From an uncultured Gammaproteobacteria bacterium (lineage in GTDB: Bacteria > Pseudomonadota > Gammaproteobacteria > CAWCPV01), in NCBI GenBank assembly GCA_963797555.1, contig CAWCPV010000003.1:160001-224000 (forward strand): DNA of 64,000 nucleotides. The letters are read 5' to 3'. Position 1 is the first letter of the stretch, and every line of letters starts with the position of its first letter. The notes under the pieces are model-generated. The model saw only the letters and a program-made list of their open reading frames with translations, was not told where the DNA came from and made no database searches. Position numbers and translations under genes: made by a program. This document shows positions 40,893-45,241 of the stretch, piece by piece.

Positions 40893-42314
40893 ATGTTTCC
40901 AGCGACAAATCGAACCACGGCGGGGACCATTGAAATGATAAGACCCACAGAACGAAACGTTGGCTCTAGGCTCACCGAGGCCATCAGGAGAGCAAAACGC
41001 GTCCCAATCCCCGGGCGGCGGCGCCCGCTCACCCTCGTCGCGATATGCGCCGGCGCTCTCGCTGCCGGACAGGCCAGCGCCGGCGGCGTGATCGCCTACG
41101 AGGTCGGCACCGCCAACGTCGGATTGGCCTCCGCGGGCTACAACGCGCGCGCCCAGGACGCCTCGACCGTGTTCACCAACCCCGCAGGCATGACACGCCT
41201 TCCGGGCACGCAGATCCTGGGCTCGGGGCAGGTACTCTGGGCCAACACCCAGTTCTCCATCGACTCGGGAACCTCACCTCGCCTGGGCAGCAACGACGGC
41301 GGCCACGTGACCGGGTCGAACGGATGGTTCCTGGGCGGCGGCGGCTTCTTGAGCTACAGCATGTCGCCCGACCTCAAGCTCGGGTTCGCGCTCACCGGCA
41401 ACTTCGGCGCCCCCCTGGAGTACGACTACAACTGGGTGGGGCGCTACTACGTCCAGGAAACGACACTGCTCGGGATCTCGTTGCTGCCCTCCATCGCCTA
41501 CAAGGTCAACGACAAGCTCTCCCTGGGGGCGAGCCTGAACGCCATGTACGGCAAGTACACCAACCAGGTGGCGATAAACAACGTCGACCCGAGGTTCGGC
41601 GACGGTCGGCTGAAACTCGACGACAACACCTGGGGCTGGGGCGGCAACCTGGGTCTGCTCTACGAGATCGACGACCGCACTCGGCTCGGCCTCACCTGGA
41701 ACTCGCAGGTCAACCTCGACTTCAATGCGCCGGCCCAGTTCTCGAACCTCGCGCCGGGTCTCAGCGCGCTCCTGAACAGCCGCGGGCTGCTGAATTCCAA
41801 CCTAAAGGTCGGGATCAAAGTTCCGCAGCAGGTAATGGCCAGCACGTTCGCACAGGTGAACGACCGCTGGGCGGTGCTCGGCAGCGTCGGCTGGCAACAG
41901 TGGTCGAAGTTCGGCCAGGTCGAGATCGGCATCGACAACTCCACCAACCCCACCAGCACCAGCACCAACCTGAACTTCAAGGACACCTGGCACCTCGCGG
42001 CCGGCGCCCAGTACCGCCTGAGCGACCCGTGGCTCCTCAACTTCGGCATCGCCTACGACTCGGCATTCCAGTCGGGTAACGTCTCCCCGCTGCTGCCGGT
42101 GAACTCGGCGTGGCGTTTCGGGGTGGGCGGCGAGAACCACGCCAGCAAGACCTTCGACTGGGGCGCCGTGTTCGAGTATCTGTACGGCGGAACACTCGAC
42201 ACCAACTTGCACAGCACGCTGCCGGTCGCGCTCGGCGGGCGCGGCAACGTCGTCGGCTCGTACAACACCACCGGGACCTTGTTCCTCGGCGTTTACGGCA
42301 ACTGGAAGTTCTAG
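40893..42314 (+). CDS. OmpP1/FadL/TodX family outer-membrane transporter
   Basis: GLASAG..AQDASTVFTNPAGMTRL hatch motif, PSIAYKVNDKLSLG, FKDTWH, terminal WKF; start uncertain. Confidence 0.9.
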   Translation: MFPATNRTTAGTIEMIRPTERNVGSRLTEAIRRAKRVPIPGRRRPLTLVAICAGALAAGQASAGGVIAYEVGTANVGLASAGYNARAQDASTVFTNPAGMTRLPGTQILGSGQVLWANTQFSIDSGTSPRLGSNDGGHVTGSNGWFLGGGGFLSYSMSPDLKLGFALTGNFGAPLEYDYNWVGRYYVQETTLLGISLLPSIAYKVNDKLSLGASLNAMYGKYTNQVAINNVDPRFGDGRLKLDDNTWGWGGNLGLLYEIDDRTRLGLTWNSQVNLDFNAPAQFSNLAPGLSALLNSRGLLNSNLKVGIKVPQQVMASTFAQVNDRWAVLGSVGWQQWSKFGQVEIGIDNSTNPTSTSTNLNFKDTWHLAAGAQYRLSDPWLLNFGIAYDSAFQSGNVSPLLPVNSAWRFGVGGENHASKTFDWGAVFEYLYGGTLDTNLHSTLPVALGGRGNVVGSYNTTGTLFLGVYGNWKF

Positions 42315-42414
42315 GGGTGCGTCCGGTCGGTGAGTCTCAGGGCTTGTGAATTTTGTTTCGATAGCGACGTAAGGCGAGGGCTACCGCAGGGCTGAGATCG
42401 CCAGCTTGTGGGGG

Positions 42415-43111
42415 ATCGGGTCGAGGTGACGGGATTGCGCCCGTCACCCCTCCCACACCACCGGACAAGCGGTTTTCCGCATCCGGCGGTTGGACTTGGC
42501 GGCCATCAGGCGGCCGCGAGATCCGATGGAACCAGGAGACTACCCGTTCCATCAAGCTCTCATTCAGCGCTTTCATTCATTCTCCTTCCGCCACGGTTTC
42601 CTTGCCGCCTCCAGTCTCGCGTCCGATAGCTCCACTATCTTTCGCTCCACCGCCCAAGGGATGGCTGCCGCAGTTGCAACGGCCCTCGGTTTCAGACGAC
42701 TTCGCGGTCACCACAGCGTCTGCTCGGACTAGCCTGTCTCTCGGTCCTTCGGCCCTTCGCTCCACCCGCCATTACAGCGGGTCTTCTTCGCTACATATGG
42801 CCTCTGCTGACTTCTCCCGTGCTCTCACGCCGGAGATCTCCCCGGGTAAGGTGCCATGAACTCTCGGCCCGTGCCGCCAGGCTCTACCTGATGCGTCTTT
42901 CGGTGACCGTTGGATTTCGCGTTCCCTAGCACGCTCATCGCCCGCACCCGGCCTCACTGCCTGTTCGTGTTCCTACGGTCGTGCCTTTGCTCCGCGCTTC
43001 TTTCGGCTGAGCCCTCGCGGCTACCCGCCTTGCGCTTCACTACGGTTGTTGTCACTCTCTCCGGTCATCTCCTTTCATATGTCACAAGTTCATGGCCCAT
43101 GCCGGGCACAC
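42415..43111 (-). mobile_element. group IIC intron with deleted RT ORF (697 nt)
   Basis: 5' end GTGTGCCCGGCATGG; domain V AACCGCCGGATGCGGAAAACCGCTTGTCCGGTGGT with CGC triad; domain VI ending ACCCGAT; only the relic MKALNESLMERV.. remains of the ORF. Confidence 0.88.
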
Positions 43112-43132
43112 TAGGAGCGGCTTTAGCCGCGA
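43112..43132. repeat. GTAG-type REP forming the intron 5' exon
   Basis: TAGGAGCGGCTTTAGCCGCGA; the missing first G is supplied by base 42414 on the other side of the intron. Confidence 0.75.
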
Positions 43133-43520
43133 ACGGAGTTTCTTCGCAAGCGCTGAATGTCGAACAGGGCGGGCGGTAGGAATGGATCGCCTGCTCCCGC
43201 TCACTGCGTGCCGATCTCAGGCGTGGGGCGAAGAGGACGCTGTGGGCTGAAGCCGAGCAGAAGCGGTCGGAACGTGGAGACGTTCGGACTGCTTCAGCTC
43301 AACCCGTCATGGCGCGTTTGCCGCCTCGAAGCACGAAAACGGTTGCGGCGCCGAGACGGGCTCCCTGCTTCTCGCGCAAGCGGGAGAGGAGATTTTGCGG
43401 CGCCTTCGGGGCTTCCCCGCGTGCCCGATTGAGTCGTCCTCCTTCCCGCGGCCCGGCAGCGGGAATGCCGCCGGGCTGTTTCAGACAACCTCTTTCGTCG
43501 TCTCCTGCTCCAAGAAGCTC

Positions 43521-44274
43521 TCAGGGCGCGGCGACGACCGTGTAGGAAACGCCATTCGCGCCATACGAGGGCAGGAACCAGGTGTTGCCGCACAGGTCAT
43601 ACGTCTGGCCCCCGACGGTGGGCGTGGCGCATCCCGATGGGATGGTCGCATAAATCGCGCCCATGGCATATCCTGCTGCTACGCCCGCATTGTATGCCTG
43701 CGACATCGCGGCGGCGGTGTTGGATGCCGATGCTGCCGAGGCCGACTGCAGCGCCGACCACCGCGCCGGCGGCCGCGGCGCCCGCGACCTGCCAGCCACC
43801 GCAGTTGTAGCAGCCCGAGCCGTAGTAGTTGACGGTGGTCGGTGGATGATACACGTAGGCGCCAGACGCCGGCGGATGGTACGCCGTGGCGCCATAGGTA
43901 TCGGTGTGAGTGACGCCCGCACCGTACGCACCGGACGTGCTGCCGCCGTAGACGTTGGTATGCTCGGTGCCACCGCCATAGGCGTGCTCCGTGCTGCCCC
44001 CGTACATGTTGGTGTGTTCGCTGCCCTCGCCATAGGCGTGCTCGGAGCTGCCCCCGTAGGCGTTAGTGTGTTCGGTGCCTTCACCATAGGAGTGGGAGGT
44101 GCTGCCCCCCCAGGGGTTGCTGTGACTGGTCGATCCCCAGCTATGCGACGTGCTGCCGCCGAAATCACCCCCGCGCGAGAAGCCGCCGCCCCCGCCTCTC
44201 CACGCGGCGGCCGGATCGGCATGCAGTGCCGTGATCAACAGACCGGCGACACCAATGACAATAGTTTTCCTCAT
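43521..44274 (-). CDS. exported Gly/His/Tyr-rich repeat protein, frameshift near 43745
   Basis: AGGAGG RBS, signal peptide, about 4.5 copies of an 18-aa repeat EHTNxYGGSxEHAYGxGx, C-terminal IPSGC..YDLCGNTWFLPSYGANGVSYTVV in another frame. Confidence 0.75.
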
Positions 44275-44290
44275 GTGCAGCCCTCCTTTT

Positions 44291-45241
44291 TCACTTGATC
44301 GCGGACGCCTTCGACGGCCTTAGCGCGCCCGCTGCCGCCTTCTGCGGTGCGGCGAACGCAATCCGCCGCGCCGCCATTGCGACACTGGGTGCGGCGAAAA
44401 CGTCTGCGGCGATCGGCGAGTCCAGTTGCCAGTCGGAAAGGTCCTCGTCGTGCCGGAGCCGCAACGGATCCTTGCGGTACACCGCCCGCGCCCGGCGCGG
44501 CAACTTGTCCTCGGCCCCGATCCAGACCTGGATGAACACATCATCGTACACCAACCCTAACATGTCCGTCGTGGTCCCGCCGACGACGCGGGACTGGCCG
44601 ATATAGAAGGCGGCCAGGAGATTCCTGGTCAGCTCCTTGTACGGGTCGGCGACAACGAGATCGGTGAACGGATAGAAGATCTGCGCGGTGTCGTACGCCT
44701 TTTGCAGCATGGCGCCGATCGTGGGCGGGGCCTCCGCCACCGCCACCAGCTTCTCCGCCGGTGAAAATGCGACCATCGACTTCCCGTCGTAATAAAAGTC
44801 GCTCGCAGGGCCGTCGCCCGGCGAGAGCACACGCAGCTTGTCGGGCCGCTGCATCGCAACGTCGTCACGCGTGGTGTAGACCAGCGCCGGCCCGAAGCGG
44901 CTCGGACTCTCGTAGCTCACCACCGCCGTGAACCTCATGGTGTGCGCCGCGGCCAACCGGTCACACGCGGCCTTCAGGACCGCCATGGCCTTGGGCTCCA
45001 GCTCCAGCCGCGGCCCCGGCACCGCGGTTTCGGGTGCCGGTTTGGCGGGCTTCGAGACAGCCGGTGCCGCGGCCTCACTCGCCGACGCGGCGGGCTTCGG
45101 CGCTGGCTGTGCTTGCTGCGCGCTTGCGCTCGCTACCAGCGACATGCCCACCCCGAACACCAGTGCGCAACCGACGTTCCGGCCCAGTCTCGCTCGCGAT
45201 GAGCGGCGCGATCCGCATCCTCCTCGTCCGGCGGCGCTCAT
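44291..45241 (-). CDS. DUF2092 domain periplasmic protein
   Basis: LEPKAMAVLKAACDRL, QRPDKLRV, FYYDGK, QVWIGAEDKLPRR; ATGA overlap with the upstream gene. Confidence 0.8.
   Translation of the reverse strand: MSAAGRGGCGSRRSSRARLGRNVGCALVFGVGMSLVASASAQQAQPAPKPAASASEAAAPAVSKPAKPAPETAVPGPRLELEPKAMAVLKAACDRLAAAHTMRFTAVVSYESPSRFGPALVYTTRDDVAMQRPDKLRVLSPGDGPASDFYYDGKSMVAFSPAEKLVAVAEAPPTIGAMLQKAYDTAQIFYPFTDLVVADPYKELTRNLLAAFYIGQSRVVGGTTTDMLGLVYDDVFIQVWIGAEDKLPRRARAVYRKDPLRLRHDEDLSDWQLDSPIAADVFAAPSVAMAARRIAFAAPQKAAAGALRPSKASAIK

Follow-up and report, generated by a model that had tools for sequence, protein, structure and literature searches.

A group IIC intron without a reverse transcriptase gene inside a repetitive extragenic palindrome, and its relatives in the palindromic repeats of other bacteria

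How does a group II intron that has lost its reverse transcriptase (RT) gene come to sit exactly inside a short palindromic repeat, and is such a repeat its regular target? The question arises from a stretch of 64,000 nt of an uncultured Gammaproteobacteria bacterium (assembly GCA_963797555.1, contig CAWCPV010000003.1, forward strand 160,001-224,000), which we call the window and whose coordinates are used below except where a contig is named (C3, the contig of the window, C4 and so on). A first-pass annotation of the window had proposed an intron without an open reading frame (ORF), of group IIC and placed precisely within a repetitive extragenic palindrome (REP). It had also suggested that the lineage uses REP hairpins as targets and persists as a non-autonomous mini-intron relying on an RT in trans. 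The structural proposal was borne out in full, and the two suggestions about behaviour in part.

A group IIC intron without its own RT gene

The analysis confirmed that the element is a real group IIC intron without its own RT gene. It occupies 42415..43111 on the minus strand, an assignment resting on its sequence, three full-length Rfam matches and four copies in the genome. Read on that strand from 43111 to 42415, the intron is 697 nt long and has the ends GUGUG...GAU. The exon boundaries, marked here by slashes, are ...TTCGCGGCTAAAGCCGCTCCTA / GTGTGCCCGG...CGACCCGAT / C, where C is base 42414; over 43132-42414 the same strand reads TCGCGGCTAAAGCCGCTCCTA / GTGTGCCCGG...CGACCCGAT / C. Length, boundaries and the following C are those that had been proposed. 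The ends agree with the GUGYG 5′ and AY 3′ pattern of group II introns and are identical in all copies and relatives.

The three Rfam matches were RF02001 (D1-D4-3; 88.8 bits, E 1.7e-16) at 43024-42853, covering model positions 1-170 of 170, RF01998 (D1-D4-1; 40.5 bits) at 42849-42752, covering positions 1-84 of 84, and RF00029 (domains V and VI) at 42491-42415, covering positions 1-77 of 77 with 40.0 bits, which equals its gathering score of 40. The RF00029 match stops on the predicted last intron base. RF02001, together with covariation, defines the domain I core (42853..43024, minus strand), and RF01998 the end of domain I with domains II and III (42752..42849, minus strand). According to the RF00029 alignment, domain V (42458..42489, minus strand) has a 9-bp helix that contains a CGC triad and a G-U pair; a UU bulge of 2 nt separates it from a 4-bp helix, which is closed by an AAAA loop. 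The catalytic triad and the 2-nt bulge, followed by domain VI, are those of a group II ribozyme, and the domain V sequence is the same in all four genome copies. We take the CGC triad to be typical of class IIC. Domain VI (42418..42453, minus strand; sequence and RF00029 alignment) has an unpaired A at 42421, 7 nt from the 3′ end, as a candidate branch point. Domains V and VI are thus as intact as they had appeared at first sight.

For domains I to III, RNAalifold predicted a consensus of 86 pairs from 17 members of the lineage, 47 of them with compensatory double changes. The window copy keeps 79 of the 86, its sister copies 85 and 86, and relatives 77-84; among the four genome copies, the window copy thus shows the greatest erosion. 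These counts, with the full-length RF02001 and RF01998 matches, answer the concern raised with the first-pass annotation that domains I to III might be unable to fold.

Domain IV (42492..42751, minus strand), delimited by comparison with full-length relatives, has lost its ORF and consists of a leader of ~170 nt followed by ORF remnants. The RT start codon (ATG) lies at intron nt 536 in all four copies, which have the same domain IV architecture throughout; in full-length relatives, the ORFs of 416-428 codons start at intron nt 526-543 and end ~10 nt before domain V. Here, ~13-14 N-terminal RT codons (MKALNESLMERVV) are joined out of frame to the last ~10 codons (LLVPSDLAAA, stop). The N-terminal remnant (42535..42576, minus strand) is the ATG with ~13 codons (MKALNESLMERVVS), corresponding to relatives that start M..NLMEEVVS or M..ELMEQVVG. 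The C-terminal remnant, in the other frame (42506..42538, minus strand; ..LLVPSDLAAA, TGA), can be aligned with the final 46 nt of the ORF in relative L112. About 1.17 kb of the RT/maturase ORF was lost and roughly 25-30 codons are left, close to the first estimate of about 30.

Relatives were collected with an exact pattern of domain V. A scan in which each species was represented by one genome returned at least 120 stretches, and the matches listed came from Acidobacteriota (mainly Bryobacterales), Verrucomicrobiota and Gammaproteobacteria. Both intron ends were found at 23 loci, comprising 14 full-length introns (1866-1904 nt), 8 RT-less forms (668-705 nt) and one of 1107 nt. By kinship, the GTDB family contained this genome only, and 400 genomes sampled from the class gave only matches of the size of domains V/VI. 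Three members of this sample (G307, G039 and G140) are marked unpublished; one G307 locus was aligned, and none of our conclusions depends on it. The RTs of the full-length relatives have RVT_1 and GIIM domains only and no endonuclease domain; their best solved match is the GsI-IIC RT (6ar1, E 1.1e-107), then come other IIC RTs, and LtrA lies far behind.

Copies and insertion sites in this genome

Four copies were found by blastn, at C3:202415-203111 (the window copy), C4:57947-58637 (95% identical), C12:28473-29128 and C20:121339-121994 (each 90%). They are 89-100% identical and have precise GTGTG...CCCGAT ends. The C12 and C20 copies have the same flanks and were counted as one site, while the flanks on C3, C4 and C12 are unrelated up to the exact intron ends. 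A single domain IV deletion junction is common to all four copies and thus to three distinct insertion sites. Because one deletion is shared by copies with unrelated flanks, we conclude that the element moved after losing its RT.

The RT might instead have been lost in place and the other copies have arisen as duplications at the DNA level, without the mini-intron ever having been mobile. For the C12 and C20 pair, identical flanks do indicate a DNA duplication or an assembly duplicate. However, the C3, C4 and C12 copies each lie behind a different hairpin with CCTA, and the one deletion junction recurs at all these sites amid unrelated flanks, which makes duplication a very improbable explanation of the whole set.

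Two fragments were also detected by blastn, one from the 3′ part of the intron (C5:288168-288334, 87%) and one from its 5′ part (C5:225780-225873, 82%). The former has lost its 5′ part and contains the ORF-less junction, a shape that aborted reverse transcription would leave.

The 5′ exons end in ..TTCGCGGCTAAAGCCGCTCCTA/ on C3, ..CCGACGGGGCATCCCGTTTCCTA/ on C4 and ..GTCGGCGGTCAACGCCGACCCTA/ on C12 and C20. All three distinct sites consist of a hairpin (folding at −5 kcal/mol or below), CCTA, the intron and C, the latter being the first 3′ base in four of four copies. This arrangement, CCTA/C behind a hairpin, is what the sites have in common; a REP is present at only one of the three.

That one is the window site. 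The REP body (43112..43160) reads TAGGAGCGGCTTTAGCCGCGA with a conserved tail on the plus strand, and on the minus strand it supplies the 5′ exon hairpin GCGGC-TAAA-GCCGC followed by TCCTA. Base 42414, on the plus strand, is the first G of the REP head GTAGG, which the intron cuts off; read on the minus strand, this base is the C at which the 3′ exon begins, the position of intron-binding site 3 (IBS3). The intron therefore splits the REP head between G and TAGG and lies precisely within the REP. Its removal restores a 22-nt palindrome, GTAGGAGCGGCTTTAGCCGCGA, as had been claimed, and the genome contains one more exact copy of this 22-mer (C20:113535, minus strand), which is paired with an inverted second copy at a distance of 54 nt. 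With an nhmmer profile built from the matches, the family comprised 11 copies in 5.35 Mb, so the hairpin is repeated in the genome. The REP stems vary with compensation (GGC with GCC, GAT with ATC, GAC with GTC, GCC with GGC), the head is GTAGG in 8 of the 11, and a tail of ~25 nt is common to 5. The palindromes are a real but small REP-like family, with a copy number that is low for REPs. The family presumably resembles the REPs of Pseudomonas. No REP-associated tyrosine transposase (RAYT) was found beside it: none of the 30 Y1_Tnp matches in the genome lay within ~15 kb of any of the 11 REPs.

The other two sites lie in genes. The C4 copy (L012, 887-1577) is inserted in sense orientation in a PIN-domain gene, with both exon halves in one frame; the upstream part is MIVVLDTDVIVAAVVSSDGASRFL, and the downstream part of 119 residues matches PF13470 (E 4e-9). 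Splicing of this copy would restore the PIN gene. The C12/C20 copy is inserted, in antisense orientation, into a fragment resembling queC, a name taken from our reading of the translation.

Class IIC introns are known from terminators, and in this respect the window site departs from the class: there were no terminator-like sites in 42200-44400, and what comes after the hairpin of the 5′ exon is TCCTAC CCCCAC, with no T-run. The recognition of the exon is of the class IIC type nonetheless. Exon-binding site 1 (EBS1) of the window copy is UAGG, at 42925..42928 on the minus strand in the loop GC-UAGG-GAA, and pairs with the CCUA that ends the 5′ exon, as judged by covariation with the target. 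Across ~9 target types the EBS1 loop tetramer varies with the last four exon bases. The combinations include UAGG with CCTA, UGGC with GCCA, GACA with TGTC, GACC with GGTC, UGGG with CCCA, UAGC with GCTA, GAGC with GCTC and GCC(A) with (A)GGC. The loop matches the exon end in 19 of the 23 relatives, and three of the four positions pair in L122, L116, L109 and L059; L075 and L086 have one mismatch each, adjoining the splice site. This covariation fixes the 5′ boundary and shows recognition of the IIC type. There is no need for a second intron-binding site (IBS2), as identical copies in one relative's genome (G401, see below) follow unrelated sequences at −5 to −12. A hairpin of −5 kcal/mol or below was predicted in the last 36 nt of the exon at 55 of 70 distinct insertion sites, compared with 15 of 70 control windows taken 70 nt further upstream; the sites are not independent, as members of repeat families are numerous among them. 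Most relatives likewise have C as the first downstream base. The working target rule is any hairpin followed by CCUA/C.

Convergent genes flank the window copy. On the plus strand, a gene of the FadL type for an outer-membrane protein ends at 42314. Upstream on the minus strand are a DUF2092 gene and then a glycine-rich ORF, which starts like a signal peptide and ends at 43597, and the intron has the orientation of these minus-strand genes. The glycine-rich ORF (43597-44274, minus strand; 225 codons) is glycine/serine-rich, has no Pfam match and has a G+C content at third codon positions (GC3) of 0.77. Thirty nucleotides downstream of the intron, at 42330-42384 on the minus strand, there is a GTAG-headed stretch whose tail, ..AAAATTCACAAGCCCTGAGA, is like those of the REPs; perhaps this is a second, inverted REP that has degenerated, and nhmmer did not detect it.

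Elsewhere in the genome, C12:26973-30049 and C20:120418-123494 (L013, L014), which hold the same intron with the same flanks, represent either a duplicated island or an assembly duplicate; beside the intron there is a carbonic anhydrase-like ORF carrying the motif IHFHSPAEH. The 5′ fragment at C5:225780 belongs to a cluster of at least 10 group II RT matches at C5:188-226 kb, most of them partial, together with one intact intron of another Rfam type (RF01999), which looks like an intron graveyard or an insertion nest. At C16:167275-167350 (L010), a domain V/VI match of 43.3 bits with no domain I-IV match or RT nearby is probably another intron fragment. A stretch of ~75 nt (ACAGTCAGAAGGAATTCGGCTAGGTCTGGGAGCGCATCCTGCCGCGG...) recurs nearly unchanged more than 20 times (for example at C3:412920, C4:11619 and C7:178158) and is probably part of an insertion sequence.

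Relatives in the palindromic repeats of other hosts

Five host genomes of relatives were searched with the first 370 nt of the intron, and all 5′ ends were retrieved for two of them. In one of these two (G401, an uncultured gammaproteobacterium of 3.4 Mb), 26 copies were found. Of these, 25 have a length of 688 nt and no RT; the remaining one, of 1885 nt, encodes the only RT of G401 that exceeded the family cut-off. Twelve of the 26 lie behind GTAGG-headed palindromes, TTGGG..CCCAACCTA/C or CGGGTTA..TAACCCGACCTA/C, of which 22 copies are unoccupied and often form inverted pairs; controls gave 0 matches. Two further copies lie directly behind another intron copy and the remaining 12 at other sites. 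The head-to-tail pairs are at L198 (local 1368, 2056) and L215, with the second 688-nt copy starting right after the ..CCCGAT of the REP-borne one; a second insertion at the still intact hairpin and CCTA of the occupied site would give them.

The other genome (G402, Verrucomicrobiae, 4.2 Mb) gave 14 matches, 13 with a 5′ end. Twelve could be measured and all are 704-705 nt long; one match is partial, and in another the 3′ end was unreached. All 13 with a 5′ end follow repeats of two palindromic families, of which 71 and 11 copies are unoccupied, and controls again gave 0 matches. Two more genomes gave a similar picture for the copies examined. Nine of nine, from a total of at least 35 in G403, lie behind GCGGACC..GGTCCNCGCTA/C, a repeat with 30 unoccupied copies. 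In G404, which also has at least 35 copies, ten of ten lie behind a GGTGCC..GGAGGC/G repeat without a GTAG head; the pattern of this repeat gave 64 matches, ~15 of them occupied sites by their coordinates.

As a whole, the lineage thus prefers palindromic repeats that belong to its hosts, with EBS1 matching the head of each repeat. For the heads GTAGG and GTAGC, the reverse complement amounts to IBS1 with IBS3. The suggestion that REP hairpins are the targets of the lineage therefore stands for the relatives (13 of 13, 9 of 9, 10 of 10 and 12 of 26 copies) and not for this genome, where two of three sites are non-REP hairpins in genes; the preference became visible only once relatives were included.

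A stricter version would make the intron a REP specialist, guided for example by the REP/RAYT system, with all non-REP sites being accidents. The exclusive use of repeats by the copies analysed in G402, G403 and G404 fits this idea, as does the tuning of EBS1 to the host head (UAGG for CCTA/C, UAGC for GCTA/C and GCC for GGC/G). However, the non-REP sites here and 12 of the 26 in G401 are unique hairpins, some within genes, the G404 repeat has no GTAG head, and no RAYT adjoins the 11 REPs of this genome. A short IBS1 behind any hairpin accounts for every site, and we regard strict specialization as unlikely.

RT-less forms also recur within the lineage. In a tree of the ribozyme part they group with different full-length relatives: L126 with L075, L115, L106 and L107 with L123 from the same genome, and L077 with Bryobacterales introns; the minis of the Verrucomicrobiae and those of the present genome stand alone. 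Because RT-less forms are scattered among full-length relatives, the ORF must have been lost several times. The deletions end alike, ~10-14 codons into the ORF and ~45 nt before domain V. The ratio of RT-less to RT-bearing copies is 25 to 1 in G401, 13 to 0 in G402 and 4 to 0 here.

We also considered a long-range domain IV stem as the driver of repeated ORF loss. In the window copy, a predicted 8-bp stem between the N- and C-terminal RT remnants (GAUGGAAC with GUUCCAUC) spans the deletion junction, and in L123 and its minis a 9-bp stem is predicted across it. Shuffle controls did not support the idea: pairing of the first 48 nt with the last 60 nt of the ORF exceeded all 100 shuffles in 2 of 10 distinct full-length relatives (L123 and L075) and was at background in at least 4 of the 10.

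Probable mobilization of the mini-intron in trans and comparison with known systems

The intron is quite probably a non-autonomous class IIC derivative whose ancestor homed to a hairpin with IBS1 and was copied by the RT of another intron. The ancestor would have reverse-spliced into single-stranded DNA just 3′ of a stem-loop, choosing its site by 4-5 bp of EBS1-IBS1 pairing, UAGG(G) with (C)CCUA, and by C as the first downstream base. The DNA copy would then have been made by an RT supplied in trans, since several independent sites carry one and the same deletion. On its other strand, a GTAGG-headed REP reads as a hairpin with CCTA/C and would thus offer a ready-made and harmless target. Relatives in several other genomes live mainly in REPs, which are one of several hairpin targets here.

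Several observations weigh against this account. The intron occupies only one of the ~11 REPs of this genome. No RT of the lineage was found in this assembly: blastn detected no full-length relative, and tblastn with 8 lineage RTs gave at most 47% identity, so that the RT-containing parent sought on the strength of the first-pass annotation was missing. Five group II RTs above the family cut-off are present, and among the introns concerned, the Rfam types of the mini-intron recur only in that at C4:644-646 kb. The RT of this intron is intact, has a YADD motif and is 43-47% identical to the lineage RT, but the ribozyme is very distant and invisible to blastn. In G402, the 13-14 near-identical RT-less copies were accompanied by no group II RT at E ≤ 1e-20, which a helper in the same genome fails to explain. 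Present activity here is doubtful as well, because the copies diverge by 5-10%, the window copy breaks 7 of the 86 consensus pairs and the C12 and C20 copies lack 34 nt at the border of domains III and IV. As for expression or polymorphism, none of the public runs contained more than 16% of the sampled locus words; contigs from these runs were pieces of relatives, none of which bridged the deletion or an exon junction, and the contigs from RNA libraries covered only part of domain I.

The helper could be in the unassembled part of the genome, the assembly being 84.6% complete, and cross-mobilization by the RT at C4:644-646 kb is possible. Given a divergence of 5-10% between the copies and an assembly in which no cognate RT was found, we consider, with moderate confidence, that the copies here are stranded relics of past activity. 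Of the suggestion of a non-autonomous mini-intron served in trans, the non-autonomous state holds, given the deletion at three sites, the truncated copy and the 25 to 1 ratio in G401, and reliance on an RT in trans would apply to the past.

RT-less class IIC introns with hydrolytic endonuclease activity have been given the name HYERs (hydrolytic endonucleolytic ribozymes; Liu et al. 2024, Science, as cited in 10.1101/2024.08.31.610620 and PMC12990946), and the present RNA might be such a stand-alone ribozyme, kept for cutting single-stranded DNA or RNA at hairpins with CCUAC, or spreading without any RT. The abundance of minis in G402 without a detectable group II RT would suit such an origin, as would the repeated appearance of RT-less forms in the lineage and the occurrence of pair-preserving changes among the copies (6 pairs kept and 8 broken between C3 and C4). 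The minis of G401, however, accompany one cognate RT-bearing copy, the classical pattern of parasite and helper. The 5′-truncated fragment at C5:288168 looks like aborted reverse transcription, and incompleteness of the metagenome-assembled genome could hide an RT in G402. We judge a HYER-type function to be rather unlikely and return to a derivative once copied by another intron's RT.

Class IIC introns are reported to insert at terminator hairpins or attC sites (PMC4424553, PMC12584367), and their targets to include terminators 'or other inverted repeats' (PMC1702495). The terminator-homing introns B.h.I1, GsI-IIC and O.i.I1 combine a small ribozyme with target choice by a short EBS1-IBS1 pairing and one base downstream, and they insert a few bases 3′ of a DNA stem-loop (PMC4424553, PMC1702495, PMC12584367), as described above for the present lineage, whose full-length members share with them an RT without an endonuclease domain. 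In contrast, the hairpins used here have no T-run and are REP-type repeats or chance hairpins in genes, and the window copy has no RT. The integron introns of the IIC-attC type likewise represent a IIC sublineage that shifted from terminators to other repeated imperfect palindromes (PMC4424553, PMC3001079), but their targets are the attC recombination sites of integron cassettes and not REPs.

In bacteria, group II introns that lack an RT have been called rare, and they usually accompany related introns that bear one (PMC4424553). Those of Thermosynechococcus and Trichodesmium are ORF-deleted copies, mobilized or spliced in trans, with RT-bearing kin whose protein can act on them (PMC4424553, PMC12584367), a situation comparable with that in G401; they are, however, IIB/chloroplast-like (CL) introns with long specific homing sites, whereas here the introns are IIC, the targets are hairpins and the helper is missing in this genome. 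HYERs share with the present minis a class IIC ribozyme, the lack of an ORF, a length of ~640-700 nt and a short target-recognition sequence. By description only, which is how the two were compared, they differ in that RT remnants and RT-bearing siblings show a recent retroelement origin here.

Other elements use REPs in a similar way. IS1397, ISPpu9/10 and ISPa11 treat them as harmless repeated landing sites; these are mostly DNA transposons, whereas the intron uses RNA pairing to the REP head and recognition of the hairpin. For a group II intron of P. putida KT2440, two of nine copies were listed as REP-associated (PMC1525189, Tobes and Pareja 2006), and in the literature searched, this table row was the only connection between group II introns and REPs. 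In the literature covered, which placed most subscription journals and supplements outside its scope, no description was found of REP homing by IIC introns or of the fit between a REP head and IBS1/IBS3. Hairpin homing and RT-less IIC introns are thus known; what is new is a IIC lineage that resides largely in REP-type repeats and has repeatedly become RT-less minis.

More tentatively, we suggest that a cross-phylum IIC lineage (Pseudomonadota, Acidobacteriota and Verrucomicrobiota) may have moved from terminators to REP-type repeats, retuning EBS1 and EBS3 to the head found in each host (mostly GTAG(G/C)) and repeatedly shedding its RT. The products would be minis resembling miniature inverted-repeat transposable elements (MITEs), which outnumber or outlive the autonomous copy. 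This broader history is doubtful at present. If it is true, hosts with minis only, such as G402 and the present genome, imply an RT from outside the chromosome, an unrelated RT, or spread or function without an RT.

For annotation, our findings mean that 0.7-kb 'intergenic' blocks in REP clusters are worth checking for mini-introns. The lineage also provides natural families of compact IIC ribozymes with differing target tetramers, which are relevant to HYER-type tools. IIC machinery is usually that of a 'terminator homer'; here it is directed at REPs, which rank with the commonest non-coding repeats in bacteria, and copies without an RT predominate. This links the biology of REPs and of their hairpin-forming doublets (REPINs) with that of group II retroelements, and the sequence offers a reason for the link: the head of a REP, read on the other strand, is IBS1 with IBS3.

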